Of a stretch of 38,257 bases of DNA, positions 11,572-36,030 are shown one piece after another. Numbering within the stretch: position 1 is the first letter of the stretch; each line of letters begins with the position of its first letter. Origin of the DNA: Welwitschia mirabilis (Eukaryota); contig JBOZIK010000001.1 in NCBI GenBank assembly GCA_051453625.1, forward strand, positions 8,477,068 through 8,515,324, read 5' to 3'. The notes under the pieces were generated by a model. The model made no database searches. It saw only the letters and a list, made by a program, of their open reading frames with translations, and was not told the origin of the DNA. Made by a program: the position numbers and the translations under genes.

Positions 11572-11613
11572 TGCACCTGCAACTGCAACTGCCACTGCCA
11601 CTGCCACTGCAAT
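11572..11613 (+). repeat. Imperfect hexamer repeat of 7 units (TGCAAC/TGCCAC-like)
   Basis: tgcacc tgcaac tgcaac tgccac tgccac tgccac tgcaat. Confidence 0.9.
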
Positions 11614-12828: not shown

Positions 12829-14256
12829 CTATGTTGTTCGTAAATCACTCTGATGTAATAAACCTATTTCTTCGTCTGTAGATGTTTCCAGTAAGACGGA
12901 CATCTCTAGTTCCTGGCATCCAACCAGCTGCTGTGATTTTGAGGCTTCCAATTCCCAATCCGTGTTATAAACCACCAAAAGTATAGAGGAAGCACAGGCA
13001 ATTTGAGCAGCCAAGAGGCCATACCAAAGACCACTAAAACCGTACTTCAACCAGAAGGCCAGAACGACTGCAACTGGAGTACCCACAAGATAAAATGACC
13101 CCAAATTTATCCGCACTCCGACAGCAGGTCTAGCAGTGCCTCTAAGGACACCACATCCTGTAGTCTGAGGACAGTTTCCCAGCTCACATAGGCCTATCAG
13201 AGGCAGAACTGAGACTGCCATTGAAACTACATTCTCGTCATCTGTAAAAAAGGATGCCCATTTGTCCTTTAGCAAACTAGTCCAGACCAAATTCACGATA
13301 CCTGTTACCACTGCGCACCCCAGTGCCACAAACGTGGCAAGTCGAGCTCTATCAGGCTGGTTTGCTCCGAGTTCATTGCCTACACGTGTTGAAACGGACG
13401 AGCTTAGTGCCATTGGCACTGTGTACATGAGACTTGTTGTCTGTATAACAATGGCGGTTGTTGCCACAGTCACTGTTGGGTCTGGAAGGAAACCTGCAAG
13501 CACTGTCATGATCTCGTACCACCACCATTCCAGACATATCGCGAAGCAATTTGGCAGGGCCAGGCTTAGAAGTGACCACCATTCTTTGAGAGCTGTCATC
13601 GACCAGCCTTTCCAGGTGCTCTTATGCACCCCAGACATGTACAAATAGACTAATAAGAAAGACAGCATATTGAGATTGGTCAAAACTGCACCCACTGCAA
13701 CACCTGGTACGCCAAGATCAAGAACAAAAACAAGAACGATATTGAGAGGCACATGGAGGATGACTGCCAACGCGGAACACCACATCATGGGGGCTGTTAT
13801 ACCCTGCGACCGGAGATACACTCGAATGGGCTGGATAAAACTTTGTGTTACCAGATCAGGCAATGAAAACAGACAATATGTAGCAGCTACAGCTGTTATG
13901 TCTGGATCCTGCCCTACCCACAACATTATCTGGCCCAGATTCAACCAGAGAATCGAGATTGGCAAACAGAAGGATAACAAAATGAGAATCATACGCTGCA
14001 GCGACACGCCGATTAGGTCCCAGTTCTTTCCTCCAAAAGCCTGGCTACAGACCGGATCCATCCCTGACGCCAGCCCAAACAAAATGGAGTAGCCCGTGAT
14101 ATTTGTGAAACCTATTGACAGAGCTCCGCCGGCTAGTTCCTGGCTACCCAGGCGCCCAAGACAGAGCACAGAAACCATTGCTCTAACGTAGACAAGAAAG
14201 TTCATGATTGCCACCGGCACAGAAATGCTTCCCAATTCCTTCAATTCTGTACTAAC
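12829..14256 (-). CDS. DTX54: MATE efflux family transporter (DETOXIFICATION 54 / BIGE1-like), exon 2 of 2
   Basis: 475 uninterrupted codons plus TAG, with plant MATE motifs [57 protein letters not shown] and NLGSFYLVG. The N-terminus is close to Arabidopsis DTX54 as I recall it. The exon starts after a polypyrimidine tract and ctgcag|GTT; an in-frame TGA at 14284-14286 and no ATG before the conserved start mean splicing is required. The symbol is a closest-family call, not proven orthology. Confidence 0.93.
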
Positions 14257-14362
14257 CTGCAGATATGACAGAAACCAGAAGAGTCAGGAAGGAAACAAAG
14301 GTATAAGTATCAAAACGAAATAAAAGAATGCGAGTGTTTGCTTGTCATTCGTGGCTACAGGC
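14257..14362 (-). other. 106-nt intron with GC-AG boundaries (CAG|GCCTGT...ctgcag|)
   Basis: U-rich interior and strong acceptor. The nearby GT donor (CCT|GTAGCC) is out of phase with this acceptor. Confidence 0.65.
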
Positions 14363-14431
14363 CTGCGTGATGGAAGGGAGATTGCAGAAGAAAGACTGGT
14401 AATGTTCCAGTGAAGCAATCCACAATCCCAT
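14363..14431 (-). CDS. DTX54: MATE/DTX54-like exon 1 (MGLWIASLEHYQSFFCNLPSITQ)
   Basis: ATG in strong context (aaagATGG). A phase-0 join gives [14 protein letters not shown], matching the PTLPQ|VIEELKEL N-terminus of DTX54-type proteins. Confidence 0.75.
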
Positions 14432-14443
14432 CTTTTTGATCTT

Positions 14444-14554
14444 TCAGGAGAAGATATTGAAAATTGAACAGGGACGTCTGTGCTCAGGCTCCGCCGATCG
14501 GATGATCGATGGAGATACGGCAGGGGCTTCGTTATTATTGCAGAAGATGGGCAT
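14444..14554 (-). promoter_or_regulatory. Candidate upstream ORF (36 aa, MPIFCNNNEAPAVSPSIIRSAEPEHRRPCSIFNIFS) ending 12 nt before the MATE ATG
   Basis: ATG at 14554 and TGA at 14446-14444. It is only functional if the 5' UTR reaches this far. Confidence 0.4.
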
Positions 14555-16063
14555 GAGACAAGGGACAACAGAGAAAGCAAAAGATGTATGGCGAAGGTAC
14601 AGTACCACGAGTGCTGTGAATTTTTCCGCCTCAAATAGGGGCGAGAATTGGATGATGGGGTGGCATTGGCAAGTAGGGCAAATAACAAGAAGCAGCGAAC
14701 CTTGGAACAAATAAAGAAAAAGAGATAGTAGAAAAACCTTGGAAGAGAAAAACAGACAAAATGACAAAATAGGGAGTAAAAGAAAACAGAGACCCAAACT
14801 CAAAATACGACCAAAGACCAAGTAGCAACACCGCAGTATGTATGTAAGCGTTAACATGGGCTAGAGTTTGTTGCAAGTGGTATTTCCGAGGCCGGTATTC
14901 CAGAGAGCGTGGATAGTTTTCCACCACTTTTCCTCTCCGATTTGAAGGAAGGGGCGTTTTGTGTTTGTTTGATTTCGGTACGGAACACCTCCACTACGCC
15001 ATATTCCGTCAAGATTCGCCCAACGCTGGTTTCTCGCACGTGCGATCCTCGTGTCGGAAGGAATTCATCAATTACTCAACAGACCAGAAATTTCTTGAAA
15101 ATGTAACGAAAATAATATTTTAGCTTACAGAATTGGAGCCCCTGCGCGGTTCCGAATGTGCGTTGAACCGAGAAAAGGGGAAACGCCTTAAGCTTGAGGT
15201 TTCTACGCTACTGGGAGACAACGAAAACAGAGCAGAATAGGAAAGAAATAAGGCTCATAATGATCGTTAACCTTCTCTTTTCCAATGCTCTGTGTGTATT
15301 CATGCGTGGGACCTCTGTAATTAGGAGGTTCTATTTCTGGTCTATGGAAATCCTTCCCTTGATTCTAGGGATTCTCTGACGACGATGAAATTAAATCCCT
15401 AGTTTTCAATTGCATGCATGTTCGGCTTTTGCTTTTCTCCTTCTCTGCCGGCGATTCGAAGCGAAAATGAAAGAAAGGAATGTCCATCATGCAGCTTCGT
15501 TTGGAAATTTCCGACAAGAAAGCTTTGAAAAACGAAATTTGACTCTGAGTGAGGCCTACGGGAGCTAACCTGAAGGAAATTAAGTTTGTATTTACGAAGA
15601 TGTATGCGATTTCTTGCCTTGGAAACGAGCATTATGGCGGCCGCAGAACAAATTGAATCTGAATTTTGCCACAACAGTGAATGGAGAAAGCTTTCTGTAT
15701 TTCTGCTCGGCGAAAAACGCAGGGAGTGCAATCCAGCCGCACAAGATCAGCATCAGAGTAGAAGCTCCGTACGACATGTTTGCTTCTCATTTGTCAATGG
15801 TAAGACCCTTGTGTTGCTTCTCGTTCACAGAATTGATGTGCAAGGGTTTTGATCGATGCGTTTTCAACAAGGTTTGGTTGCTGTCTCCGTCTCCGAATTA
15901 TGTAGGCACAATTCCATGCACGACCAGCTTGAAACGCGGTTGGTTCGAATTCTTCTTCTGCTGTAAAAAAGGTAATGGAGATAATCGATTAGCCTTGTGA
16001 ATTTGAATCTGTTAGAAAGAATATCGGTGCTGTTTTTATCTGCAACTGAATCGAATTTGAACT

Positions 16064-16280
16064 TTACGTAACGGAATCAACGGCTACGTCATGTGCTTCG
16101 TTGGTGCCAATTCTACGTCGTCATCTGCTCTGCTCTGCAATCTCCTTTCAACAACAAAACTGTCTTCTGTTGGTGCCTGATGGTTTCCCTAAACGATAAG
16201 ATTTGGACCTTTCACGGACGTCTGCAAGGCCTATGGGAAAACGTGCTGTTTATTTCAAAACCTTTCAAAAAGTTGCGTCA
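16064..16280. promoter_or_regulatory. Cluster of ACGT/TGACG (bZIP/TGA-type) motifs at the upstream edge of the CpG-rich island
   Basis: TTACGTAA 16064, TACGTCA 16085, TACGTCGTCA 16114, GACGTC 16217, AACGTG 16240, CGTCA 16276. Confidence 0.4.
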
Positions 16281-16308
16281 CATTTGAGTAACAAATAATG
16301 CGCCCCAA

Positions 16309-16640
16309 TTTGACATCACAGTGTAGAGATATGTCAAATTGTAAGGATTGAGGTAGACAGTAAAAAATTTAACTCATGTAAGTGGGAAAAGGCTAAGATG
16401 ACATTGATAAAGATTTTAAATAGTAGATTCCTTGTAAACAGAAAAAGGCTGTGATGATGATGAATAACAAACAATGTACTACAGTTTGACATCAAATTGT
16501 AGACCATAGATATACAGAAAAGGATCTAACTCAATGTAATCAAGAAAAGGATAGGATGATGATGATAACGACTTTAAATAGTTGACATTGTGTAAACTGA
16601 AAAGGTAACAATAACAATGATAATGTAATGATGAATAATT
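16309..16640. repeat. Diverged tandem duplication of ~175 bp
   Basis: Two copies starting TTTGACATCA (~16309 and ~16484), each followed by ..TAACTCA(A)TGTAA..GAAAAGG..GATGA..TGATAA.GA.TTTAAATAGT.GA..TGTAAAC.GAAAA. Confidence 0.75.
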
Positions 16641-17279
16641 GAATAAAAACCAATATAATGATGCAAAGAGAAACTTAGTAACTTGAAGATTTTCTCACCA
16701 TTATATGTCAAAAAAACAAAACCTTTTTTTTAATTTGAGGACTTTTTCACTGTTACATGTCAAGGAACAAAATCCGTGTTTTACTAGTTTGAGTTATATA
16801 TAAGACAAAACCTCTATCTTACTATTAAGTTACATGCTTTTGACCCTAACATTAAGTTATACCTTTGACCAAAGTTGAGGGGGTAGCACTGCTACTTACA
16901 TTCCCATTTATATTGAAGAAGCTTCTAGTACTTCAGGCAAACTCAAAGAAGCAAATAGGGAATCTTGGGAATCTTAGAACATGAGACTCGAAAGGTGTCA
17001 ATAAGTTATCAAACGCTTTAAAATCAACAGAGACTGTGATGAAATCTTTACATGCGCTTAGAGAAAAGTGTAAAAAAGCATGGATTTGGGCCTACAAGGC
17101 TTGAAAACTATTATTCAAAACAATTGTTGCTCTTATGTTACTATACAGTTATCTAGTTTGAGGACTAATCTAGTAATGAAATGGTGGAAGTGCATTAAAT
17201 AAGTTCAAAAATAGTTCTTAACAAAAAAATTATAAACGAAAAAACTAGACTCCCTATGATGTGTTGCTTCTTAAATCCA

Positions 17280-20150
17280 ATATGCTACCATTGGATACTA
17301 AAGTAATGTGTTAATTTATTTCCTATATTCATAAGAACTTTAGTTCATAATGGATGGTTGACTAGCCAATTATAAAATTGAGATCTCTTGATGTGGGTCA
17401 ACCAACCAATCATGAACAANNNNNNNNNNNNNNNNNNNNNNNNNNNNNNNNNNNNNNNNNNNNNNNNNNNNNGACTAACAAAAAGTAAAGATTGCAGTAG
17501 CTACTGGAGAAATATAAGTGTTTGTTAAATAAGATTAATAAACTTCATAACATCATTTTGAAGTTTTTTAAGGAAATAACACTTTGGATAGAATTCTTAT
17601 TAGAAAAAGAGTGTTAAGTAATAAAAGTAGCTTGGGATATGTGTCTTTTATCTCATTTATCATTGTTCTTACCTCTTCTAGCAAGTCATCCTTCTCCTTA
17701 AATGGTAAAGTATCATTTGATAAGAGTACTAATTTAGGTGATGCCCAATCCTACTCTTCAAATATTAAATTTGCCAAAAGAAATAGAAGGTTTTTTATTT
17801 ATGATTTTTGTAATAAGTTTAATCACATCAAATTGAGCTATAATTATAGTAACTTATTTTTAAAATTTGATGGTATGCTACATTTACAATTCACTTGGAA
17901 GAAACCTTATTTTGATATAAGAGAATAATGGTAAAACACATAGACATTTAGCACCATTTCTTCTGTGATCATGTTGAAAGTAAAGATATATACCTTTAAG
18001 TATATGCTAATCGAATATCAGCTACAAAACATCCTTACTAAATCTTTACCCTAAGATTGATTTGTGTCCCTATGTGAATCCCTTAAAGTTGAATCTTACC
18101 CATAAAATTTTTACTTTTCTTATACTTTTTTTTAGATTTTTGATTTCTTCTTATTCTTTTTCTTAAAAACTTGTTACTATACTTAATTAGTTGTATTTTT
18201 CTTAAATTTAAATTTGCAAGGTAATATCTATTTTAGAAATTAGCTAGTCAATTAATCATTAATAAACAAAAACCCTCCTCTAACTTGAAAGTTTTCCATC
18301 CTTAAAAGGTTGATTGAAACTATTTTTTGAGTCAATCATATTTTGTTCCAATTATTTTCTATTATCATTTGGTCCACCACCCCTATGCAGTTAGTTGATC
18401 CTCTTGTTCTTAGACTCTTTTAGTTTATTTCATAATTTCAACACTTTACCCTATGGGTTGACTATCTTATCATTTTTTAGAAACCAATAAATTTGAGAAA
18501 CTTCTTTTCATTTCCAACTGCTCTAGGTTTTCGCTTAGCAACTTTCCTCTATTCTTAAGTGATTTCTTTTGACTTCTACATCATTCAAAAACCTTTTTGT
18601 TCTCTTAAGAAGGTAAAAAACTACCTCCTTTGAAGACTTTTGTTCATTTTTGTTAAAATTCAAGGGTATGTCATTTTTTATTCAAAAAACCATGGTTCTT
18701 AGATTTCTCACATTTCTAATCATTATTCTTGCTTTCCATGCTTACATCCCATTCATTTTTCTTCCTTTTACTCATTCTATGTTATCTTATTTGAAATATA
18801 TCAAACTTAGGCTATTTGGATTCTTTCTTTCCACATTCAAGTTTTTATGCCTTCTCAACTAAGTTTTCAATTTCCTTCACTCTATATGCTATCCTCATGT
18901 TTCATTCTCTCTATCTATCTTGATAATTAGCTTCTTATCTCATTATTTTTTAGAAATGCAATGTATCTTAACTAGTTCCAATTATTTTGCATCTTTTCTT
19001 ATTTAGTTTGCATGCTAACATTTTGACAAAATATTTATGGCATTGATTTTAAATTTATTAGAAATTTATTTACATTTTTCATTTCATGAGTAAATTAAAT
19101 TCTATTATTTCTTATTTAACATAGACTTTATAATATCTAAATCCAAAATGTATGAATTTTTATCATATCATGTATATGTTAACTTATTTTCTTCTTTCAC
19201 TAATGATTAATTTTTGGATGCAGAAAAGCCATTAAGAACTAGAGGCAAAGTCTTCCATGGTGCTTTTTCAAAAGGAAAAGAAGTGAAAAAATTAAGACTA
19301 TTTATAATTAAAGATGTTAAATGTATGCTAGAATGTCTGAAAAAGACAAAATTAAGTTTGAAAATGAATGTAGGAAGAAAAAATTTCTTGAAAATTTAAA
19401 ATCTTTGAGAAACCTAATTATTGAAAACATTTAAATATTAGAGATGAGAACCACCTTTAACACCTCATCTTTAAGTTAATGCAAAAGTGATTAGTCTATT
19501 TTATGCTCACATTGAAGTAGTGATTGTTACTAACTATGTACTTAAAACAAAGATTTTAGGAATTGAGTTCAGAATTGCTCTTGATGCCATCACATAAGTA
19601 GTAAATATCCCTCGTGATGTAGTACATGATATTATTTTTGGACTTTCGAATATCCTTCTAGAGTTAACCATAACTATGAGTTGTATAGCAAGGATTTTGA
19701 TTGTGATTTGATCATAGCATTCTAAGCAATGCATCTCTTACCAATATACAGAGTCCTTAACCTCATCTTTAGTTAAATCATCATGCCATAAGAAGGATAT
19801 AAGGATGAAGTAACTTTGTATTGGCTTAAACTGTTTTATTATATTCATACTAGAATAAGGATAGATGCACCCTCAATTATTTTTAAATATATGATGTATA
19901 AATTATAATATAATACTTAGACCTTTCATTATAGTGGCTTGATCATAGGTTTATGTAGCAAAATTTTCCTTCCTTTGCCTCATAATAGTTTGATAATTCT
20001 ATATTCACTAAACCCATTAACAAATCTACATTAGTCAAGGTGAATGTGTTTAAAATAGAACGTACTTCTTAAGTGCCTTCAAAGTCAAATGTTACTACTC
20101 GTGGTAGTGGGACATTATCATACTTCAATAGATCCCAAGGACATGTTGAT
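17280..20150 (+). mobile_element. Internally deleted, degenerate SIRE-like Ty1/copia remnant: gag end, RNase H end and env-like ORF
   Basis: Gag-end LDRIL..NKSSLGY and decayed knuckle YDFCNKFNHIK (ORF 17584-17928). KHIDI*HHF and EYQLQNILTKSLP (RNase H C-terminus) at ~17932-18052. Downstream decayed ORF with VISLFYAHI..TKILGIEFRI (~19210-20150). Boundaries approximate. Confidence 0.75.
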
Positions 20151-20279
20151 CCCATCATTGATGTACTTAGAAGATAGTCATAGAATAGAAAAAATATGAA
20201 TAATAAAATTAAAACTAAAATTTTATTATATCTGAATAAACATCATAAGTCTATTAGACCATTTAAAAAATACAAAGTA

Positions 20280-21893
20280 TATTAGTATTAATGTTTCCTA
20301 GATACATTAAATATGTTCAAAACTCATGTTTCCTGATAATATCATTAAAATAATGTTTTGCTATAATACACATAACTCATATAGAGTTATCCTCATGATA
20401 TGCCATTTGAAACTAGAAAATTTAATGTCACAACAATCCTCTTTTACTTGTAATAAGAAAAGTTGAAATATTCAATCCTTTGATGGAACATTAGCCCATC
20501 TTCCAGTTTCAAATTTGAGACAATGGAATACCATCCTTACTCTACTAATCAAATTTCTAATTTGTAATGGTATTGTTACAGATAGATACTTTACTTCCTC
20601 CTCAAGCTTGCTTCATCAAATAGCTTTACAATATAATTGAAGTTTTTTTTTTGGCTATCTTCCCACATTGCTTAGTAACTTTTGTTTTCATCATCTTATG
20701 AATTATTTTAGGCTTTCTACTTATATCATAATCCTAAATTTTCCATTCTTATAGCCACAACTTTCCTTTAGCATGCCATTCCTTTTCTTGAGTGACTTCT
20801 AATATCTCACTTAAAAGCTTAATTTTGTTATTAAGTTTTTATGAAGTTTAATATTTAGATAAAAATATTAGAAACTGACATATTGTGTTAGCTTTAAAAG
20901 GTAATATATCAAGCTCTCGCAACAACATTTCCTATGATACATGAAGCTTTAGTCTTAACTTCATCTATTAAAAATTATTTTTGAATTGTCTCTATTTTCT
21001 TCCATAAATATTTGGCAAGGATTTGGATTCATGTTGTGCATTCATATAAAATGAGATTTGGATTCATGTTGTGCATTCATATAAAATGACTCGTTGCATA
21101 CTTGTATTAAATAATTACTTTCATACCTTCCATGATAAAATATTTTCTTTCTTACATTTGCTTTTTATAACATAAAGATCCTTTCACCCCTTTGTAAATT
21201 TTAGTGACACATGTTGATTCCATTTATCATTCTAAGAAGATTCCAATCCTAGGTATTTGTATGACTTAATAATCTCAAAATATTTATTATTTAAATAAAA
21301 AAAGTATTTTTCATTTATTTCATAAATAAGGATTTTTATTTTAGCAACATTTACCTTTATCCTTAAGCATCTACAGAACCTTTCTAATACTTTTAACATA
21401 GTCTAAAGTCCTGCATCAAATTTTATAGCTAGTGCTCCATCGTTTACAAAAATTAAGAAACGGAACATTATTTAGCCTATCTTCATTGAATACCTTTTTG
21501 ATACCTACTACATCCATCTTTCTAATCCATCCATAAGAGTTCCAAATAATGTTAGTGATAAAGGACAACCTTTCTTTACTACTATGCTACTATAAAACTT
21601 ATAAGATTCTTGAGAATCTGTGCTTATTAATTCAATCGTTATTTCTACATATAGTCTTTTTTGGTGATTAATGGACTAAAGACAATATTAAGATCAATAA
21701 GTCTACTTTATAATTTATTTCTAATGACTGAGTTATAAGATTTTGTAAAGTTAATAAAGAAAATGAAAGTCTTCTTGTACCACTCCTTTGATTGTTTATT
21801 TCAAAACTTAAGGGTGACTAGATGATCCATTATAGAGTAATTTCTTTAAAATTCTATTTGAAAGAATGCATAAATTGCTTATTTTTTGTGTAA
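20280..21893 (-). mobile_element. Degenerate non-LTR retrotransposon (LINE) ORF2, RTE-X-like: RT and C-terminal domain
   Basis: VVKKGCPLSLTLFGTLMDGLE (~21520-21583), decayed YADD region IFVNDG, GL*TMLKVLERFCRCLRIKVNVAK, KYLGL (~21245-21260), and C-terminal FHCLKFETGRWANVP..IFQLF..ED (~20440-20540). Runs into gap 21894-22875. Confidence 0.85.
21020..21089. repeat. Perfect 35-bp tandem duplication inside the LINE
   Basis: gatttggattcatgttgtgcattcatataaaatga x2. Confidence 0.95.
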
Positions 21894-22875
21894 NNNNNNN
21901 NNNNNNNNNNNNNNNNNNNNNNNNNNNNNNNNNNNNNNNNNNNNNNNNNNNNNNNNNNNNNNNNNNNNNNNNNNNNNNNNNNNNNNNNNNNNNNNNNNNN
22001 NNNNNNNNNNNNNNNNNNNNNNNNNNNNNNNNNNNNNNNNNNNNNNNNNNNNNNNNNNNNNNNNNNNNNNNNNNNNNNNNNNNNNNNNNNNNNNNNNNNN
22101 NNNNNNNNNNNNNNNNNNNNNNNNNNNNNNNNNNNNNNNNNNNNNNNNNNNNNNNNNNNNNNNNNNNNNNNNNNNNNNNNNNNNNNNNNNNNNNNNNNNN
22201 NNNNNNNNNNNNNNNNNNNNNNNNNNNNNNNNNNNNNNNNNNNNNNNNNNNNNNNNNNNNNNNNNNNNNNNNNNNNNNNNNNNNNNNNNNNNNNNNNNNN
22301 NNNNNNNNNNNNNNNNNNNNNNNNNNNNNNNNNNNNNNNNNNNNNNNNNNNNNNNNNNNNNNNNNNNNNNNNNNNNNNNNNNNNNNNNNNNNNNNNNNNN
22401 NNNNNNNNNNNNNNNNNNNNNNNNNNNNNNNNNNNNNNNNNNNNNNNNNNNNNNNNNNNNNNNNNNNNNNNNNNNNNNNNNNNNNNNNNNNNNNNNNNNN
22501 NNNNNNNNNNNNNNNNNNNNNNNNNNNNNNNNNNNNNNNNNNNNNNNNNNNNNNNNNNNNNNNNNNNNNNNNNNNNNNNNNNNNNNNNNNNNNNNNNNNN
22601 NNNNNNNNNNNNNNNNNNNNNNNNNNNNNNNNNNNNNNNNNNNNNNNNNNNNNNNNNNNNNNNNNNNNNNNNNNNNNNNNNNNNNNNNNNNNNNNNNNNN
22701 NNNNNNNNNNNNNNNNNNNNNNNNNNNNNNNNNNNNNNNNNNNNNNNNNNNNNNNNNNNNNNNNNNNNNNNNNNNNNNNNNNNNNNNNNNNNNNNNNNNN
22801 NNNNNNNNNNNNNNNNNNNNNNNNNNNNNNNNNNNNNNNNNNNNNNNNNNNNNNNNNNNNNNNNNNNNNNNNNNN

Positions 22876-22924
<49 letters not shown>

Positions 22925-22925
22925 T
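22876..22925 (+). repeat. (CT)n microsatellite abutting the gap
   Basis: Seen directly. Confidence 0.97.
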
Positions 22926-23255
22926 TAAAGTGGTGTGGGGAGGGGAGGAATGGTCATTTTTATTAAAACATAAAGACTGGTATTATGCCCAAAATTAGTG
23001 CATAAAGATTCAATACAAAGGATTTTTCCATGCTACCCTACTAGAAGCTACTTTCTAACTACATAAGCAGAAGCCCAAAAACCTATTACAGATCACTTGC
23101 ATTACAAAGATCAAAATCACAAAGAACTAAAACAATCAGCCAGCAAAAGGAAAAAGAATAAAAACTAAACTCTAAAACTAAACAAATACCGTTGATGCAA
23201 ATAAGCTAAAGCTAGCTTTCATACTTATAGAATAACTTGTTACAATGCATAAATG

Positions 23256-23447
23256 ATTGAAAGCTCAGGCACACTTATTCATGAGAATGTATTTCACTGT
23301 GTTAATCTATATGGCTTACTCAAGAGCTTCTTCAATCCTATTCTAGTTTTTATCTAGATGCCATTTCAGCATCATGCATCTATGAGCTTTGATGATCTCC
23401 TATTATGATGCTTTTGGAAGGATTCCTGAGTTTTCATAGTGATCCTT
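23256..23447 (-). pseudogene. Decayed DnaJ J-domain
   Basis: Single frame reads KDHYENSGILPKAS**EIIKAHRCMMLKWHLDKN*NRIEEALE*AI*INTVKYILMNKCA*AFN. All six stops (TAA/TAG/TGA) revert to Gln or Arg by one T->C change. HLD (CAT CTA GAT, 23360-23352) reverts to HPD the same way. Confidence 0.88.
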
Positions 23448-24494
23448 CCAAAATTTCTCTACTTCCATTTCATCATAATCTAGATCCCGATTAGGCTCTA
23501 AGTTCCTTTAGTTTTTTGTTTATTCTTCTATATAGCTCTCATCTAAGGGATAGCTCAAGAAATCTTTGCATGTTTTACCTTTTCCATGCCTAACTTTCCC
23601 TCCATGAGAAGATTCTGACATGGCTGTGCTATGGCCTTCTCTTTCTTATGGGCCTCTTCTTCCTTATTAATTATTTCTAAATCCTTATCTTTCATTTGGT
23701 CATGCTCCCTCTTCGACTTACTATGAGGGTTTTACCAAGGTTCCTTCTCTTGATTTTGCCTTGCTAAGCCTCGACCAGAGATAGGATTTCACTTGACCAC
23801 TTTAGTGTTGTCATGCTGGATTTCTTCTAGTCCCTACTTTTAAAATTCTACCTCATGCCTAATATAGCCATTTGCAAAAAGGAAAAGAAAGTAAAATGGT
23901 CTACTCTTTCTACCCTATTCTCCCTCTAGGCCTTGTTCAAAACCATAGGCTTTGAAGCCCTTCTAGCTAGGGCCTCTACCTTAATAAACTTTAATAATTT
24001 CTTAATTATCCTAGAATGCCAATTTTTCCACATTGCCTCTCAGCCTTTAATGAAGAAGAAGGGTAAGCTCACTAGCCTCCCATATTTAAGGGTTAGTGAA
24101 AAATTAAAATGTACATCCCTTAATTTTGAATGATTTCCATACTAAACAATGTAATAATCAATATATTCAACCATACTCTGATTTTTGAATATATCCCTTT
24201 TCTATTCTTGATGCTTTCCACTTAAGTATCCTTAAAATCTAAAAAGGAAGAAAACACTTATTTTCCTTCTTGATGCAGCCCTGTGATCTCCACTATTAGA
24301 TGTTGAGATATTAGAACTCTCTTTTTCAAGACAAATAATTTTCCATAAGTAATTTCTTTGCTTAATGAGAAAACTAGGTCACCTTTAAGTTTGGTCAACT
24401 ACTTTCATCCAAGAGTCAAAATTTAACTTCATAAATCATTCCTCTACCTAAACTTCTCACTAGTTTCTAGCTCATATTAAGGGTGTTGCCCCAT
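23448..24494 (-). pseudogene. Decayed retroelement-accessory-like ORF plus charged linker leading into the J-domain
   Basis: Starts ATG GGG CAA at 24494: MGQHP*YELETSEKF..LTKLKG..ISQHLIVEITGLHQEGK, then VEYIDYYIV*YGNHSKLRDVHFNFSLTLKYGRLVSLPFFFIKG, then a K/E-rich stretch. About three frameshifts. Family resemblance is from memory of uncharacterised gymnosperm TE-associated ORFs, not from a search. Confidence 0.6.
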
Positions 24495-24789
24495 TGGTTT
24501 TAGCATTAAGACATATAAAACCTTTTTTATTATTTTTTACCTAATGGCACTAACATTTTGGTTTACAATTTAGAATATTTTCTTATTACAAGCTACCAAA
24601 TAAACCATAAGATCATATTAAAAAATCATTTGGGCATGCAAACTACCTACATATAATTTACTTCTAAATTAATCACTTACCATACCTCACATGCTATTAG
24701 ACAAGCCTAAAATAAATGCTCAATAGATTCATTTCCCTCATACTGAATACAAGTTGCTACTATATGGTATCCCCTCTTTCTTAGATTTT

Positions 24790-25674
24790 CTACTCATAGG
24801 ACTTGATCTATGAAAATTACCCATCTTAATATAGCAGATTTTCCCCTAATGCACGTCTTCCATAGCTTATGAAGTGCTTATTACTTTCATTTCTTTTACT
24901 TAGTAATGCTTTAAAGTTAATACGACTTCCATCTAGAGTGCAGTAATCTTTCATCTGCATTAGGATGATTTCATCTAATTTGTTCTTATAAATACTCAAT
25001 GGCCCTATTGCTATTTTTGCATTTTAAGTGGGGTAGGCTCGCCAGTTTTCAATAGTTCATTGCTCTTAGTTGTAGTATATGTTTAAGCTAAATTATTTCT
25101 AGTATAATATCCTTTATGTTCTTTGGCTTCTTACTCTTGAGTATTTTTTTGGTTAGAAGGGTATATCTCCCCTTCCAATTTTCTAGCTCATGGGATTTTC
25201 TAGCTTATCTCTTCCCTTAATAATGCCTTTTAAAAGGGGAAATCCCCTTTCTTTAACTTTTCCATTTCTTATATTTACATTTTAGAATTATTATCGAAGT
25301 GTGACTTATCCTTATTTAAATTTTTTAATGATGTTAACCTTCACTAAGAAGATAATGTTCGTCATATCTTGTATGACCCATTTGCTATATTTTATTAACT
25401 TGACTATCTCTTGTCATATGGTCAGATGAACTCATGGATCTTCTTTTTCCTTATTTCAAATGAAGTTCTTAATTATTTTATTTACTGTTCTTTTACATTC
25501 TTTGGTAGCAATCTTGTTAATGCCCCTTATCTTGCTAGTATCGATCTGATGGAATTCATCAAGTTGATCCTTCCCTTACTTGACAGAAAGATTTATTTCA
25601 TTAACTACATCTTTTACTTATCTTAAGTGGAAGTCATGAAGATCATTAAAATTAGAGAAAGAGATGAATGAGGT
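24790..25674 (-). pseudogene. Second decayed ORF of unknown family upstream of the J-domain ORF
   Basis: Long stop-poor, K/E/I-rich frames such as VKDVVNEINLSVK*GKDQLDEFHQIDTSKIRGINKIATKECK, ERGFPLLKGIIKG and AKIAIGPLSIYKNKLDEIILMQMKDYCTLDGSRINFKALL. No domain recognised. Confidence 0.4.
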
Positions 25675-26029
25675 CTATCAAAAATAATTTCTACTAAAAT
25701 AAATTAAATATTATACAATAAATACCTTACTAGATTAATGTGGTTCCCTGACCTAGATACATTCACACATAGAGTGTAGCCTTCTTTCGTACCTCTGAAT
25801 ATTCTTAGCCTGCAAGGTAGTGGTTTTAAAACATCATCGATCTTACATACAATTGAGATGCTCCTCTCAAGGCAGCATTCTCTTCCCCTTTGGAATATTC
25901 AATATATTAAAATAAAAATGTGCTCACAAGTACTTATAGAAGCATACCCATATAAGGATTGCCTTATAATATGGAAAACTTAGCTAGGGATCCTAAGATT
26001 TAAAATAATAAATGGACTATAATGAGTGT

Positions 26030-27055
26030 GTTAAAAAATATGATAGTTTCATATTTTAATTTCCAATAAATAATAATAACAAATGAAACAACAAGCTTGA
26101 AAATATATTTCTTTAATAAAGTGCTTGAGTTCTTCCTTATTGTTATAATCCACAAGTGTCAAAGATTAGAGTGCTGTAGCTTTATAAGAGCCAATGATCA
26201 AATGATGTATTCACTAGATAGTATTTTGCAAAAGATAGCTAAAAGCTTCCTATTTAGTACAAATCACCTATGGAGTCATGTGTTTCTTTTTCTTTTCTCT
26301 TTGTATCATTTATACTTCTGATGTGTTTCTAACTATTTTCCTAGGGAGATAGTTGTTTGAAAACATGTAAATATTGTGTAATTGATTAAAATAGCTAAGT
26401 TTTAGGTGTTCAATGATTATTTTATTTTCTGCAAATCTTTGGGATAGATGTCTTTTAGATGATAGTTGTCTCTTATTAGGTAGACATTTTTAACATGGAA
26501 GGCATCTCTGCTTAAACTGTCTAGATTTCGATAAAATGTGAACTACAGTTTCTATGACCCTTAGTGATAATGCATTCAAGATGCAAAACTTCATTGATTT
26601 TCTGAGATGTAGATAACTCATCAAAAAATAATTTATTTCTATTACCTCTTCTAGTTTAGTATAAATGTCTTCAACTATGTAAACATCTTTTAATAGTTAA
26701 AGCAGTATGGACATCTTTAGTGTGATAGATATCTTTCACCTATCTCTAGTCCTTCATTTACTATAAACTTCTTTATTAATGCAAACATATTTTTCTGAAT
26801 GAAGTATATTTAGCATAGACATTTTTGATATGGAAAAAGTCTTTCCCATATACAACTTTACCTATGTAGATGTCTTTTGTCAGTTTTGTTTTATTATTTA
26901 TGAAATCCAAGCTGAAGTTTTTATGTAATGTAAAATTTAAGGTTTGACTTGGTTTGGTTCTTTTTAAGATTTGATGTTCTCCAATTTGACCTGTCTACAT
27001 AATAGACATAATACATTTAACAAGGGGAATCATCAAAATTAGAATTTTACCAATA
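26030..27055 (-). repeat. 3' LTR of the SIRE-like element
   Basis: Begins TATTGGTAAAA..TTTTGATGAT (TG decayed to TA) right after the PPT and contains repeated AGACATCT/AGATGTCT-like boxes. Far end uncertain. Confidence 0.55.
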
Positions 27056-27549
27056 ATCTCGCTCTTTTTAATGATCTCCAAGACTTGACAAATCTCATTA
27101 GTGTAATCAAGTTTTATTAGTGGAATGGAGATAGTTTAATGTAAGAGAGAGCATAATATAGTTTAATGTAAGAGAGAACATAATATATGACATAAGACAT
27201 GATAAATTTTAATAGATGTAAAAATATTCATTAACCACATACATAATCATGCAGAGTAGTAACTAAGAAGTAGTATAAATGATAAAACACATAAGTATTA
27301 GGTGATTGTAGATAACGAAACATGACAATAGTCAATAACATAACATGTAATGCATACCAACAACAATAACAAAACATGTAATATGTACCAACAAAAAAAA
27401 GTGATCATTAATAGTGATGTCACTCACAGGGAGTGTAATCCACCTATCTTAAGATCATATCCTCTAGACTCATATAGGATGTCCAATCGGATTTGCCTAT
27501 CTTCTCGCCCTTTTAGATAGTATAAAAAAGGAGCTAATCACTAAGAGCT

Positions 27550-29210
27550 GAGTCACTAGTACACTATGTGCCAACTTCTGCATCATTACTGTCATCATTA
27601 CTATCCATGGTGGTGGAGTTCTAAATGGTATACGAAGAGGAAGATATGGTGGAGCTGTGTGCCCCTTCCTGGATGGCTAAAATGATGACTTACCAGGGCA
27701 TTAAGAGACCTATCTCCTCATATGTAAATATGTCTCATGGTAATAAAAGCACAAAAGAAGCGAGCAGTGGCAATTTCAGCAAAAGATGATGGTGAAGTAG
27801 TGCTAAGAAATGGAACATGATTTGGTGTTGTAAAAGATGGTGATGGAGATGAAAGGCAAGGTGGTGATGATGGATAAGGGGGTGGTGGAGGTTATGAAGG
27901 CTATGTCAGATGGAAAATGGATATTTCAATTAAGGCCTATAAAAGATAAGGGGTTAATCATCAAAGATCTTAGAGTTTTCCTATTACTTTCCCTATATCT
28001 ATGATATAGTGTATGCTCCTCCCATGCTTGTGTTCAAGCCTAGTGCTCCCTTGTGTCTATGCCTTCTCTGCTATGGACTCTAAAGAATTATTATTTGCTA
28101 CATGACCTAAGTTATATCTTGTAGAATAAGATGTCAGAGGTACCTTTACCTCTAATTCCTCCTTAGAATTAGACCAAGTAGGAGTCCCCATGGATTTCCA
28201 ACTACCTATATGAGTCTCTCCTTCACTAGGTATGAAACAGTGCTTCTTCAACCTTAAGAAGTTACATCCAAATCTTAGTGTGATCTTAATAATATCCTTC
28301 AGACCTTTCTTTATTGATGATGAACTATGAATGCTGCAGAGTAACAATGCTAAAACTATGATTTTAAAGGTCTTCTACTTGTGCCTTTACTAGCTAATAC
28401 TAGTGCTCATCATTTTTGGCTTCTTTAGTTGAATAAGATTCATCTATGACACTAAGATGCTAGTATTACTAATAATCATACAAATCAAGAAATGGTGACT
28501 CAAAGTCTGACCCTTCTGAAAAAGAGTAATGATATCCATACATCAAATAAAATTAAGATTAATCTTTATCCTAGTAAGAAGATAATAAATTACAAATGTC
28601 TACATTGAATTGCAATAGCTATAGCTACCATCCCAAACAAGTGTATTACAGAATGTGACTAAACCCAAAATAGAGGCATCTGGTACCATATCTTTATGTT
28701 CTATATTCTCATAAAAATTCATTCTAGGATGCCTAAAAAGTACATTGCTTATTAAATGTTGTGAAATATTAACAAAGAGATAGATAAATATCTATTTTAA
28801 AGAATGTGCATATAATTATAAAAGATTTAAATCATCTATATCAAGCATGAAATTCACAAAAGTAGGTATGATAAATAGAGAAGTATCTTGTACTTAAGTT
28901 TGAAATGTCCAAGTGCAATCATCTATCTCATGAATGTTAGCATAGAATTCCCTAACTATGGAGTCTAGAATGACCTCTTCCTATCAAACTACCATGTTCC
29001 AATCAATAAGTGAAAATATGCAAGAAGATGATCTTTTCTCTACTTTTTAAATCCAAGAGTCCATTCTACAATGATGGAGTTTCTAGTCTATGTTTTAAAA
29101 TGTTTGGTAGTACACTCACAATAAAATTGAGATTCATACTATGATTTGTATGATTCTATGGCAAGTTATTTTTCTTTGGAGGCATCAAAGGACTTTCTCC
29201 TCATCATGCT
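27550..29210 (-). pseudogene. Env-like / putative plant transposon protein ORF of the SIRE-like element
   Basis: DSIVREFYANIHEI (~28925-28966) matches the VREFYAN hallmark of this ORF class. Pro/Ser-rich C-terminal part at ~27780-27900. Confidence 0.7.
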
Positions 29211-29889: not shown

Positions 29890-32800
29890 TACCTAATTAG
29901 ACAAGGCTCAATCCTCAAGTTTCTGCATAATTTAATAAACTTGCCACCACATAGTGGTTTAGTGAAGAAATCAGTGAGTTGATCATTGATATTAATGTAT
30001 TATAGCATGATGTTCTTATTCTATACATATCCTTTAAGAAAATGATATCTGATCTTGATATGTTTGCTTCTTAAATGTTGTATTAGATTTTTCAAAATGT
30101 TGAAAGAACTTTTGTTATCACAAAAGATGGAAATGATCTTCAAGGATAATGCAAATTTTTTTAAACTTTATTTCACCCAAAGTAGCTGAGCATAATAACT
30201 CCCAGTAATAATGTATTTAGCCTCAACAATTGAGAGAGTAGTTGAGTTTTGCTTTTTTCTCTTCCAAGATACTATACATTGCCTAAGTAACCACTTGTGT
30301 TCCTTCTATCATCTTTGCATGTTACCTAATCTATGTCATAATATCCAACTAGATTAAGGTAAGAGTCCTTTGAATACCCAAGTTTCCAGTTAGTAGTATC
30401 TTTTACATAATAGAAAATTCTTTTAACTGCCATAAGAAGTGATTCTCTAGGATTACCTTCATAATAAGCATAAGTTTCCTATCCTCAAAATGATATCAAG
30501 CCTACTAGTAGTAAGATACAATAAAATACTAATCATACCTCTGTTTAGCTTCTGGTCAATCTTTTTACTATGCTCATCTTTGTTTAGTTTGATGCTTTAT
30601 TTCATTGGGATATCTTTGTTTAGTTTGATGCTTTAGTTCATTGGGATATCTTTTTACTATGCTCATCTTTGTTTAGTTTGATGCTTTAGTTCATTGGGAT
30701 ATCTTTTGCTTTGCAATTCTGTAAGCCATACTTGACTAGCAAATTTTTAATATACTTAGTTTAAGAAATGAATGCACCTTATTTGTGTTGCACAACTTGA
30801 ATCCTTGAGAAGTTACTAATTTCCCTCATAAGACCTATTTCAAACTCATAATCTTAACAAACTTCTTACATAATAATTCATTAGTAGATCCAAAATAATA
30901 TCATCCACATAGATTTGTGCAATAGTACAATTCTTATCATCCTTTTTAATAAATATTTAACATTAGATGCAACTTGTTTATATCTATTTTTTATTAGATG
31001 GCCCAAAAATTTTTCATACCGAGCTTTAGGTGCTTGCTTGAGAACATAAAGAGTCTTTTTTAGTTTGTAAATATAGTCTGATTTATGAGAATTCATAAAT
31101 CCTTTAGGTTACTTAACATATATTTTTTCTTGAAGTAATCCATCTAGAATGCATGTTTAACATCCATTTGATAGAGTTTAAATCCTTTGATACATACAAA
31201 GGCTAGAAGCATTCTTATGGACTTCATATGAGCTACTAGTATATAGGTTTCTTCAAAGTCTATGCCTTCTTATTGATTATACCCTTTATCTACTCATCTT
31301 GCTTTATTTCTAATAAAATTACCATTTTTATTTGTTTTATTTCTAAAAAACTATTTTATGCCAATAATAGATCTCTTAAATGGTCTTATAGTGAGTTCCC
31401 AGATATTACATCTTTTAAATTGTTTAAGTTCCTTTTACATTACTAGCATCACATTTTACTTCATTGAAAGTCTTGGGTTCTACCTATGAGCTATAAGCTA
31501 TAAATCTAAAAAATTCCTCAATATAGCTTCAGGTTTGAATACCACCATACAAACTAACTATTGTATTACTTGTAGAGTGACTTCTTTTTAGTCTAATCAT
31601 ATTTTAAGAAGTTTCCTTATCTATTTCTTCTTTTTTCTTCTTCTTACTATCTGATTGTACTTGAGGATGGCTAGATGATTGATTAATCTATATCAGAATA
31701 TAGCCATCTTACACATAGATAGAAGTTGAGTCAATATCACTTATTTTAACATTTATGGTTTTATATACTACATGAGTTTTGTTATTAAATACTCTGTAGG
31801 ATTTACTAACTAGGAACTAACCCAAAAAATGCCATTATTAAATTTGGAATCAAATTTTCTTAGCTTATTATTTTTCATTTAAGATAAAGCATTTTGATCC
31901 AAATATGTGAAAATAACTTATAAATAGTTTCTTACTAGATCATAATTCATATGAAGTTTTGGAAGTGAAATGTCTTACCAGAAGTTAATTAGAAATGTAA
32001 CATGTAGTGTTGATGGCTTCTACCCAAAAATGATAAGGAACCTATTTATCATGCATCATTATTCTTGTCATTTCATTTAGAATTGTGTTATTTCTTTTAG
32101 AAACTTCATTTTTTGTGGGGCTCTTGGTGTAAAACATTGATGAAGAATATCAAGTAGTTCACAAAAATCTTTGAACTTTGCATTTTTAATTTCAATGCCA
32201 TTATTACTTCTTATTGTCTTTATCTAATATCCCTTATAGTTCTGTAACCTAATACATATCTTAGAGAAAAATTTAAATGCATGGTACTTATGTGTAAATA
32301 ATGATACCCATGTAAAATGAGAGTAGTCACAAAAAAAAGTTAGATAATATCTTTTCTTACCAAGAAATTCTATAGAAGATGGATCAACAATATCAAGACA
32401 TAAAATATTGAAAGCATGTTCAGTTGTAATAGGTTTTTCTTACCAAATCTTGTCCTTGTTTACTTTTCTTTTTGGTATGCTTCATAAACTTGATTATCAA
32501 TGCTTTACTACTTAGAAAGTCTGTTTATCAGTTTTTTTAAGAATAAGATTTTTAGCAAGTCTTTGTTTACATGTCCAAGCTTCCTGTGTCGCAGCTCCAT
32601 TTCACCTATAGTAATTAATAGATACTTGGTTTCTTTATTAGAAATATCTTATAAAGTAGTGATGTAGACATTAAATTTTTTTTATTCTAGTAAATAAGAC
32701 TTTGGTTGAATTATGTTCTTTGATAACATAATCATCTTTGATAAAAGTGACAAAAACATTTGTATTACATAACTAACTAATACTTAGTAGATTATACTAT

Positions 32801-34804
32801 AATTATTCTACAAAGAAAACGTCTTTTACCTTAGGTAGATTACTTCCTTTAATGGTTTCAATCCATCTGATAGATGCTTTTGTATTATTACCAACATGAC
32901 CACTCCTTTATCTTGCTCTACTAAGATGGTAAAGCTAGATCTATCTCTAGTAATGTGCCTGAAACACCCACTGTCAACATAATAGACATGTTTCTTTATT
33001 ACTTGTAATACAATCTGAGCTAATAGATCTGATCTTGATTTTAGAANNNNNNNNNNNNNNNNNNNNNNNNNNNNNNNNNNNNNNNNNNNNNNNNNNNNNN
33101 NNNNNNNNNNNNNNNNNNNNNNNNNNNNNNNNNNNNNNNNNNNNNNNNNNNNNNNNNNNNNNNNNNNNNNNNNNNNNNNNNNNNNNNNNNNNNNNNNNNN
33201 NNNNNNNNNNNNNNNNNNNNNNNNNNNNNNNNNNNNNNNNNNNNNNNNNNNNNNNNNNNNNNNNNNNNNNNNNNNNNNNNNNNNNNNNNNNNNNNNNNNN
33301 NNNNNNNNNNNNNNNNNNNNNNNNNNNNNNNNNNNNNNNNNNNNNNNNNNNNNNNNNNNNNNNNNNNNNNNNNNNNNNNNNNNNNNNNNNNNNNNNNNNN
33401 NNNNNNNNNNNNNNNNNNNNNNNNNNNNNNNNNNNNNNNNNNNNNNNNNNNNNNNNNNNNNNNNNNNNNNNNNNNNNNNNNNNNNNNNNNNNNNNNNNNN
33501 NNNNNNNNNNNNNNNNNNNNNNNNNNNNNNNNNNNNNNNNNNNNNNNNNNNNNCTGATCTTGATTTTAGAATCCATTTTTTCTTTGGTTTAGCTGACATA
33601 GAATATTGTACCATACTTTTTGGCCTTTTGGCATTATTAATGTACTATTTGATTTGGAATTTAGTTAGATAATTAAACTAGTATTGACCTCATTTGTAGT
33701 AATAATAATAGATAATATTATTGGTCTAAACTATATACACATACATTGAGTTGTAGTTCTATTTATTGAACAAGGAAGATAAAGTATCATGAAAGGATTT
33801 ATTATGAACTAAACCACTTTTATCATTTGAGCTTTTTCATTGTCCACGCATAAGACTAAAGGTCTTATTCCCTTGAGTAAAGTCTCACTAATTCTTTTTG
33901 AGTTAGAAAGCTCTTATTTAACATATTAAATTCACATATTAGTTTACTAATCTTATCATTAAGAGGTAAATTTTCAGGTGCTAACCTATTGTAAGAATCC
34001 TTTTTTAATTCATATTCTAATTTACAAGAATAAAGTAATCTTTTCCTTTTAGTACATACCTTTTGAAACTTAATGAATTCTTTAGAAATTAAACCATATT
34101 TGTCTTGAAGTTTCATACCTATTTCAGCTTCACTATCTAATTTAGATTCTTCTTTTATTTCATCTCTTTTCTTTTGGATATGTATAATAGCCATGTAAGA
34201 TGAATGATCTTTTTCATCATTATATGTTTCTAGTTTAGTTACATTCTCATAATCATCCCAACATGTGAAGAAAAATCTCCTTTTCATGGACTCTTTCTTT
34301 TGCATTTTTTCTCGTAATCTATTAGAGATAGGGTATTCTAAGGTTATGTATCCTAATCCTTCACAAACCCAACATTCTTAACTTAGAAACACCAAACTTA
34401 AAAAAAATGAAGAGCTATTATAAGTTTTACCTTTGAACTTACCTTTAGTTTGAAATTTGTATATTTTCTATAATCCTCCTTTTTGTTATTCTTTTGTGAA
34501 ATAAGTCTTTTAACTCACTTGGTCATTAGAGCAAGTTCTTTGTCTACATCATTTTTAGAGGAATATCCATCTGATCCTTCTTTTATTTTTTCTTTTGAAA
34601 TTTTTCTTGTATTTTCACTAGCTTTAAGAGAAATATGATTCTCTTTTAAGGCATCATCTTGAATAAGATTCATCTCATAAGTTGTTAGAGCACTTTGTAA
34701 TTCTTCAATCTTCATAGAGTTAAAATATTTTGATTCTTCAATGGCTATTGTCTTAGGCCTATATTCTAGAGTTAAGGATCTAACAACATTTTGGATTACC
34801 TTAA
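29890..34804 (-). pseudogene. Decayed copia gag-pol
   Basis: Gag KTIAIEESK ~34740, knuckle CWVCEGLGY ~34350, protease YVDSGCFRHIT ~32950-32985, LRHRKLGH ~32580, integrase FWVEAINTTCY ~32000-32030, RT YQMDVK ~31160 and YKLKKTLYVLKQAP, RNase H QLTDFFTKPL ~29955-29980. Confidence 0.92.
30560..30707. repeat. Near-perfect local triplication (~36-53 bp units) within copia RT
   Basis: atctttgtttagtttgatgcttta(t/g)ttcattgggat occurs three times; two copies are preceded by atctttttactatgctc. Confidence 0.9.
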
Positions 34805-36030
34805 TGTTGCAATGAATATTTATATAATGTTATGTCTTTAGTTAAATCTTATTAATCATAAAGATACACACAAATACAACACACTAATATAGATGGGGAG
34901 TGGACCAAAATGTTATAATTCCATTAAAGACATAAACAAGAAGAAAGAGAATTGATTTCAAATAAAATATTAATGTACTTTCTAAGTAGAACAAAGTAAC
35001 AATGCAAAGTAAATAATGCAACTAAACATACTTATGCAAATGATACGCAAAACTAATCTAAACACAACATATGTATGATTACCAAATCAACTTGTTAGAA
35101 AGATCAGTCTTGTATAATCTAGAACAATCAAGAAAAGCCATTACTAGACTAAGATCAACCTAAGCTCTCAAGTGCATTGAATAGAATATGAAACAATAGA
35201 AAATTAATCTAGAAAATGAAATGCAATGCATCTAATCATGATCTATATCACAGATGAATCTATTATAGAATCATAAGTAAGATAAACCATAAAGGATATG
35301 CACATAACAAAAGATATAAAAAGAAAAATAAAGTTTTGATCATATAAGAATTAACATTTATGTTACAAAGTAGCAATACCTCAATAAAGTGTACATTACC
35401 CAATACTAAGAAAGACATCTCTATGCAACTACAAGGATGGATCTCCTACCCTTCACTCTTCGATCATGAGAATTTTTAGTGCTAAAGAAAATAAAGTTAG
35501 AGTTGAGGATGAAGGTGGTATTTATTACAAATAGAGACTCTAAAAACAATAAATACTAATAGATATAATAAAACCCTAATGACAATGCAGGAATACATAG
35601 TACATATGAGAAAAGTTTGGTGAAATTTGATAAATAGTTATATTTAGATATCATCTTGCTAGTCATCTGAATATTACAAAAGATTATGCCATATCATGTA
35701 AAATCCATGTTAGCTACTAGATTAGTTTAGAAAGTGTCCTAGCTAGTATAAGTTCTTTTAATATCCGTATGATTGTCTAGATGATAAGGCAGATGATGGA
35801 TTTTGTGAAAATGTTTTTGTGTTAAATTAGCCTCTTGGATTATAGCATTTCTGCTTTAAATATGATGTATTGCAACTTATCTTAAATGCTATCAAATGTA
35901 ATGAAGATTGCATGTTTTCATGATATGTGCCTAGCTCTCTATTATTATAAAACTCAGCATAAACCTATCTAATATAATGTAAAACAACTTAAAATACCCT
36001 ATCAAATACATGCAATTTGGTAGCGCAACA
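34805..36030 (-). repeat. 3' LTR of a minus-strand LTR element inserted into the copia gag
   Basis: Perfect terminal inverted repeat TGTTGC...GCAACA, followed on the right by taggccccct (PPT on the minus strand). The left edge coincides with truncation of gag. Confidence 0.8.

Follow-up and report, generated by a model that had tools for sequence, protein, structure and literature searches.

Retrotransposons without long terminal repeats (non-LTR elements, or long interspersed nuclear elements, LINEs) mobilise gene fragments in several ways, namely L1 3′ transduction, template-switch chimeras and the formation of processed pseudogenes, and gene fragments and retrocopies are often captured. 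Here we describe a decayed and repeated copy of a J-domain, the domain of Hsp70 co-chaperones, located among LINE fragments in a stretch of 38,257 nucleotides from Welwitschia mirabilis (assembly GCA_051453625.1, contig JBOZIK010000001.1, positions 8,477,068 to 8,515,324 of the forward strand). This whole stretch is called the window below, and all coordinates refer to it. The phenomenon closest to this locus is the mobilisation of a gene fragment or retrocopy by a LINE, and the domain itself is a standard J-domain. The J-domain unit of the window (the domain together with the stretch directly 5′ of it) resembles such mobilised fragments: it is a host-like coding fragment, occurs in several copies and immediately follows, on the 3′ side and in the same orientation, a truncated LINE tail; it differs from them in having no demonstrable parent gene, poly(A) tail or target-site duplication.

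The proteins encoded by the first open reading frame (ORF1) of LINEs provide a second term of comparison. According to the portions of PMC4120745 and PMC5203782 available to us, these proteins are modular, often carry coiled coils and have acquired foreign domains. The five types (I–V) of PMC4120745 are RRM with CCHC, coiled coil with RRM and CTD, PHD, esterase and unclassified, DUF4283 is the dominant plant ORF1 domain in PMC5203782, and plant L1 ORF2 proteins with an RNase H domain added after the reverse transcriptase (RT) are documented in the latter. A J-domain is not listed among the ORF1 domain types in these portions of the two papers, and titles and abstract openings in the literature yielded no report of a transposon-encoded J-domain. 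The one occurrence of “DnaJ” in PMC4120745 results from a reference whose words were run together. The unit of the window is similar to LINE ORF1 in lying 5′ of a LINE RT that has the same orientation, and in its possible coil rich in lysine and glutamate (K/E-rich), and dissimilar in that RRM, CCHC, Transposase_22, DUF4283, PHD and esterase domains were not found in the unit with Pfam. The initial annotation of the locus drew an analogy with the T antigens of polyomaviruses, a case of a selfish element with its own Hsp70 co-chaperone module; the two are likened by description only, and the use of the window J-domain by an element is hypothetical.

As regards cellular J-domain proteins, the window copy retains the canonical pattern, including the KWH-x-DKN core, and its closest J-domains in the PDB are those of DNAJB8 (2dmx) and DNAJB6 (6u3r). 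In DNAJC3/P58IPK (2y4t) the J-domain is C-terminal, and the alignment of this protein to the window copy covers residues 21–76. Unlike its cellular counterparts, the window copy reads HLD instead of HPD, contains five in-domain stops, is present in multiple copies and lies within transposon debris; Pfam scans of its surroundings found no TPR or other partner domain.

The J-domain copy and its repeats

The domain is read in the minus-strand frame starting at 23510, hereafter f0, which is also the frame of an ATG at 24494 considered further below.

23256–23510, minus strand: decayed J-domain, recognised by a Pfam DnaJ match and by PDB sequence matches; Pfam-aligned part 23274–23444; seven stops in 85 codons

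J-domain searches used the 85-residue read-through of f0, with an X at each of the seven stops. Against this read-through, PF00226 (DnaJ) gave an E-value of 8.2e-6 and 26.3 bits, below the curated cut-off of 27.8, with residues 23–79 aligned to positions 1–56 of the 63 profile positions. The PDB sequence search returned 12 matches at E ≤ 0.01, all 12 of them J-domain proteins, the best being DNAJB8 (2dmx, E 7.9e-6). A single-sequence AlphaFold2 model is helical (residues 14–26, 39–54, 58–63 and 70–80), at a poor confidence (pLDDT 53.6). Judged by these sequence matches, the J-domain at 23256–23510 on the minus strand is real, well beyond chance, and the hidden minus-strand domain proposed in the initial annotation is thus borne out. 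The same annotation had reported six stops, and six do fall in the approximately 64 codons that it considered (seven in 85 codons overall, five in the 57 Pfam-aligned codons); it had also correctly read HPD as changed to HLD, the codon being CTA where CCA would give proline. With an interrupted frame and no HPD, 23256–23510 lacks what defines a functional J-domain gene, and the HLD and the stops indicate, at the level of sequence, that this copy is dead and has no function.

We looked at other copies by aligning contigs of two DNA runs (X1 and X2) and reads of two RNA runs to positions 12500–25500, at a likeness of at least 80%. Summed contig depth, which is not a copy number, was as follows for the intact MATE transporter gene of the window, the J-domain unit and the RT of a LINE located downstream of it:

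MATE gene: summed contig depth about 6–8 in X1, single contigs with 0–1 differences
J-domain unit: summed contig depth 14–69
Downstream LINE RT: summed contig depth 183–762 (single-copy DNA: about 6)

At single positions of the J-domain, letters other than those of the window were carried by 3–8 contigs in X1 and 6–12 in X2. The J-domain unit is therefore a low-copy repeat, with roughly ten copies that are at least 80% identical, and the 3–12 diverged contigs set aside the case of a unique, single-copy pseudogene, which the initial annotation had named as contrary to its proposal. One X2 contig spans 23406–25009 at about 98% identity, so the J-domain locus is common to both organism labels. 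Within the window itself, tblastn against the remaining sequence found no second J-domain unit. In the RNA runs the mean depth was 0–0.19 over the unit, versus 0–1.14 over the MATE gene, and most reads were less than 90% alike.

The other copies also provide information on the state of the unit before its decay. Among the five window-specific differences seen in 23300–23530, three hit stop codons of f0, where the other copies have sense codons. The sense codons at these places imply that the amplified unit had an open J-domain frame extending at least four codons 5′ of 23510. A fourth difference restores, in the other copies, the leucine of an LG pair known from other J-domains. At the three former positions, 23309 (in-domain), 23510 and 23522, the other copies seen have G or A against the T of the stop, that is, transversions. 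This is at odds with the suggestion that every stop had arisen by a single C-to-T change, a suggestion that one copy could not test, since every stop codon can be reached from some sense codon by a single transition.

A multi-copy J-domain could also be a decayed member of a host J-protein family that expanded through tandem or segmental duplications, in which case the nearby LINE fragments would be there by coincidence. The standard character of the domain, nearest to DNAJB8 and DNAJB6 in the PDB, agrees with such an origin, as do the peak of depth over the domain, with lower values in its flanks, and the abundance of LINE fragments throughout the window. We nevertheless regard it as improbable: no second copy occurs within the 38 kb, no close plant relative was recovered, the stretches 5′ of the domain show a comparable level of repetition, and CpG depletion and AT-richness are like those of the surrounding transposons and unlike those of the intact MATE gene.

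The stretch upstream of the J-domain

The initial annotation placed a K/E-rich linker and an ATG-initiated N-terminal domain upstream of the J-domain, and considered the ATG and the J-domain to be net in frame. The features in question are the following, f1 and f2 being the other two minus-strand frames:

23558–23731, minus strand: run of 58 open codons in frame f1, rich in K/E and in purines (purine fraction 0.65; shuffle P = 0.047)
23800–24456, minus strand: stretch without family assignment, the former “N-terminal domain”; frame f2 has the fewest stops
24492–24494, minus strand: the ATG of the initial annotation, in frame f0; nothing indicates a start

The K/E-rich run does exist, but it is in f1 and not in the f0 of the J-domain; perhaps it once formed a linker or a coiled coil 5′ of the domain. 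Likewise, f0 is indeed common to the J-domain and the ATG at 24494, but the frame between them contains 32 stops in 350 codons (0.091 per codon, versus 0.083 predicted from composition). As this density is close to chance, their being net in frame carries no information. The peptide pieces brought together in the proposed N-terminal domain come from two frames, those beginning with MGQHP and LIVEITGL from f0 and the one running from YGNHSKL to LVSLPFFF from f2, with the K/E-rich linker in f1. Over 24456–23800, f2 contains 11 stops and the other two frames 22 and 21. A trail of low stop density can thus be followed across frames, from f2 (24456–23800) to f1 (23731–23558) and then to f0. It is statistically weak: the significance of open runs was estimated by dinucleotide shuffles, with P = 0.12 for the f2 part and the value listed above for the f1 run.

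Homology searches did not assign this stretch to a family. Pfam, at permissive E-values, matched no family in three frames of 23500–24560, and RVT_3 (RNase H) gave no match in any frame of 23900–24560 with E-values up to 10 permitted. The PDB sequence search of the f2 region produced a single chance match (E 0.54). A phmmer search against 1.84 billion representatives, made with f0 only, found no match covering the part upstream of the J-domain, and a word-based homology search of the f2 region found none either, this method requiring shared exact words and being weak on decayed DNA. The AlphaFold2 model of the f2 region, made without alignment, is too poor to use (pLDDT 40.2). The ATG-initiated N-terminal domain is thus not supported. 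The repeat does carry a canonical J-domain, which occupies the 3′ end of a stretch that is rich in purines and was once coding.

LINE neighbours and the proposed spread of the unit

The J-domain lies in a LINE, that is, non-LTR, context, with the following features on either side of the unit, listed from its 5′ to its 3′ side:

24680–24904, minus strand: zf-RVT, the C-terminal domain of plant L1-type LINE ORF2 (PF13966, E 1.6e-9, 38.7 bits, over the cut-off)
24523–24538, minus strand: A-rich tract, 14 A in 16 bases, read directly, between the zf-RVT fragment and the J-domain unit
22925–23255, minus strand: T-rich tail, recognised by composition, with no endonuclease or other Pfam domain
22876–22924: (GA)n microsatellite, beyond the T-rich tail
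21894–22875: assembly gap of 982 N, covering the junction between the J-domain unit and the downstream LINE
21244–21609, minus strand: RVT_1 reverse transcriptase of a second non-LTR retrotransposon (E 2.5e-7, 31.1 bits versus a cut-off of 29.6)
20204–20222, minus strand: 3′ boundary of an abundant LINE family, a tandem repeat with a TAAAAT unit on the plus strand; 24 and 26 contig loose ends at 20204

On the strand of the J-domain, 170 bases separate the end of the zf-RVT fragment from the ATG at 24494. No RVT_1 was found in 24900–27400, 5′ of this fragment, which identifies it as a short, 5′-truncated LINE tail. No second copy of the zf-RVT LINE was detected by tblastn in the rest of the window. 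The A-rich tract that follows may, on weak evidence, be the remnant of its poly(A) tail. Word-based searches for longer proteins, subject to the restriction already mentioned, returned no match for either the zf-RVT region or the RT piece. The RT itself was missed by Pfam in six-frame read-throughs of 1473 residues (17473–21893) and found in a 185-residue piece of the same frame, and Pfam blanks from long-frame scans of decayed DNA are accordingly weak.

The downstream LINE (20204–22047, minus strand) displays many internal length variants, with joints skipping 51–292 bases around 20800–21300, and a perfect 35-base tandem duplication at 21020–21089. Its family ends at 20204 in the TAAAAT-unit repeat instead of a poly(A). 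A few RNA reads map to it.

We propose, with a probability of roughly 0.45, that the unit is a piece or retrocopy of a host J-protein gene that was spread by LINE machinery and has since decayed. The origin would most likely be a host gene. The J-domain piece would have been copied by non-LTR machinery, through 3′ transduction, a template-switch chimera or repeated retro-copying, and would have landed among LINE fragments, to decay there by methylation-driven deamination together with other substitutions. In an intact ancestor the HPD loop would dock on Hsp70 and stimulate its ATPase. Several observations point in this direction: same-strand LINE domains on both sides (zf-RVT and RVT_1), the A-rich tract between the zf-RVT fragment and the unit, the modest copy number, and a switch in composition that resembles a coding region followed by an untranslated region. 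For the latter, the purine fraction of the sense strand is 0.57–0.65 in the unit and drops from 0.60 to 0.42 directly after the J-domain, in the T-rich, non-coding-looking tail 22925–23255. The commonness of such captures agrees with the proposal, as does the lack of a J-domain among the ORF1 types in the portions of PMC4120745 and PMC5203782 cited above. Host origin and LINE-mediated spread are therefore, in our opinion, the most likely history.

Other observations weigh against this proposal. The phmmer search with the f0 read-through against the 1.84 billion representatives recovered seven matches at E ≤ 0.001, of which six are generic J-domains (34–48% identity) from unrelated sources, and neither a parent gene nor a close relative was among them. 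The seventh match, a repeat protein, was judged spurious. A poly(A) tail or target-site duplication could not be demonstrated, the 982-N gap beginning 380 bases past the domain, and the search for target-site duplications gave nine families of short direct repeats, about the number that we estimate for AT-rich DNA by chance. Contig depth is 40–69 over the J-domain and the 700 bases 5′ of it, compared with 14–24 in the flanks, which could mean selection on the protein during spread. In X1 this depth increases toward 3′ across the unit (23.6, 39.9, then 47.2), is 19.5 before the gap and then 247–762 over the LINE RT; the rise within the unit is the pattern of the 5′ part of a 5′-truncating LINE. 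Finally, what is known of the other copies comes from 40 of the 1684 difference rows and from 16 of the 6279 contig pieces.

The depth gradient leads to an alternative in which the abundant non-LTR retrotransposon downstream has the J-domain ORF as its ORF1 or as a 5′ ORF. The 5′ end of this element would be at about 24500, its ORF1 would consist of the part without family assignment, the K/E-rich coil and a C-terminal J-domain, and a spacer, an endonuclease in the gap, the RT at 21244–21609 and the 3′ end at 20204 would follow. Such an element would recruit host Hsp70 via its own co-chaperone, for instance for the assembly or remodelling of its ribonucleoprotein (RNP). The J-domain and the RT are indeed on the same strand and in the correct order, the distance from 24494 to 20204 (about 4.3 kb) fits a short LINE, and the rise from 23 to 40 and 47 across the unit and on to 247–762 over the RT can be read as a 5′-truncation gradient. 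The T-rich stretch after the J-domain could serve as an inter-ORF spacer, and the frame is open in other copies at the stops of this one. The modularity and frequent coiled coils of ORF1 proteins (PMC4120745, in the portion cited above) would accommodate this layout. Against it, continuity between unit and RT is conjectural across the gap, Pfam detected no endonuclease motif in the 380 bases before the gap, and depth falls to 14–20 between the J-domain and the gap. The usual ORF1 domains are missing from the unit, as described above, and the J-domain is not among the ORF1 types reported in the consulted portions of PMC4120745 and PMC5203782. No relative combining RT and J-domain was found, though the RT-based search returned no match of any kind. 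We consider this layout unlikely.

The J-domain could instead belong to the LINE upstream, as a C-terminal extension of an L1-type ORF2 with the order RT, zf-RVT, possible RNase H, linker and J-domain. On this reading, the “N-terminal domain” would represent, in decayed form, the RNase H domain of some plant L1 elements, a combination of ORF2 and RNase H that is on record (PMC5203782, portion cited above). The 170 bases between zf-RVT and the ATG, on one strand, give a spacing that suits RNase H, and the numbers of other copies are similar (11–13 contigs for zf-RVT versus 3–12 for the J-domain). In frame f2 the other copies read a sense codon at 24438, and the motif around this position is presumably a typical start of plant LINE RNase H domains. 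This extension is nonetheless a distinctly improbable reading of the locus, given the blank RVT_3 search reported above and a dip of depth to 23 between zf-RVT and the J-domain unit. Weaker evidence in the same sense comes from the 16 contig pieces seen out of 6279, among which record 13, a contig that includes the J-domain, has no zf-RVT piece and record 15, a contig that includes zf-RVT, has no J-domain piece. Taken together, the proposition that a non-LTR retrotransposon of a very AT-rich, probably gymnosperm, plant genome once encoded a J-domain co-chaperone appears doubtful to us; in the downstream LINE the domain would form the C-terminus of ORF1, whereas in the upstream L1 it would extend ORF2.

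Wider setting and significance

The window has a GC content of about 30% and is strongly CpG-depleted, with the exception of the surroundings of the intact MATE gene; for Welwitschia as a whole, the part of PMC8275611 available to us gives 29.07% GC and 28.77% transposable elements. The J-domain is embedded in repeat-rich, strongly CpG-depleted DNA, in line with its earlier description as part of decayed, transposon-rich sequence. The elements of LTR type or uncertain affiliation nearest to it are both on its strand:

28483–29001, minus strand: Transposase_32-like remnant, a putative plant transposon protein (PF20167, E 1.6e-6, 28.5 bits, under the cut-off of 45)
30689–32984, minus strand: decayed Ty1/copia pol, the nearest LTR-type element, with Pol_BBD, gag_pre-integrs, rve, SH3_retrovirus and RVT_2

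The initial annotation interpreted the unit as the fossil of an LTR-retrotransposon accessory ORF, with a captured J-domain joined to an N-terminal domain that begins at the ATG. The Ty1/copia pol, about 7 kb upstream of the unit and followed by the Transposase_32-like remnant, would offer a source for such an ORF, and the unit is multi-copy. However, self-BLAST found no LTR pair within the extent of the window, the domains adjoining the unit on its strand are zf-RVT and RVT_1, and the LINE fragment and 3.5 kb of DNA with no assigned domains separate the unit from the copia remnant. The N-terminal part matches no accessory-ORF family in Pfam (Transposase_28/32, PMD and others) and has no similarity to the Transposase_32-like remnant in tblastn, and the ATG frame is not open. 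An LTR-retrotransposon affiliation is thus very improbable. Overall, the earlier observation is confirmed in part and its interpretation supported in part. We rank the spread of a host piece by LINEs first, followed by ORF1 of the downstream LINE, a relic of a host gene family, the extension of the upstream L1 ORF2 and, last, the LTR accessory ORF.

The Transposase_32-like remnant lies downstream of the copia pol and shares its strand; it could represent an additional ORF of the copia element or have been inserted separately. Upstream of the pol, 33865–34829 (minus strand) contains open stretches of 170 and 104 amino acids that look gag-like by eye and include a CCHC-like motif, with no match in Pfam. 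A 170-base direct duplicate (36697–36866 and 36967–37136, 97% identical) flanks a 100-N gap and is probably an assembly artefact of a scaffold join. The MATE transporter ORF (12829–14283, minus strand) is an intact single exon of 484 amino acids (MatE, E 1e-68), situated in an island (10000–17000) with a GC fraction of 0.43–0.45 and an observed/expected CpG ratio of 0.6–0.9, versus 0.0–0.2 in the surrounding DNA. Reads of both RNA runs share a loose end at 13478 in this gene, possibly a splice site or the junction with a paralogue.

As it stands, the J-domain of the window is transposon-associated gene debris, a known phenomenon, and the present copy alone cannot decide between a passenger and a LINE-encoded domain. 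As a passenger only, it would add to the host gene fragments that retroelements have dispersed and subsequently destroyed in a genome with heavy methylation and deamination, and its value would be one of annotation. If a LINE did encode the J-domain, a chaperone-recruiting module would join the short list of accessory domains of LINE ORF1 and ORF2, in a type of LINE protein absent from the ORF1 classifications in the portions of PMC4120745 and PMC5203782 cited here. Such an element would recruit host Hsp70 directly, and the assembly of retrotransposon RNPs would be tied to Hsp70 in a testable way.

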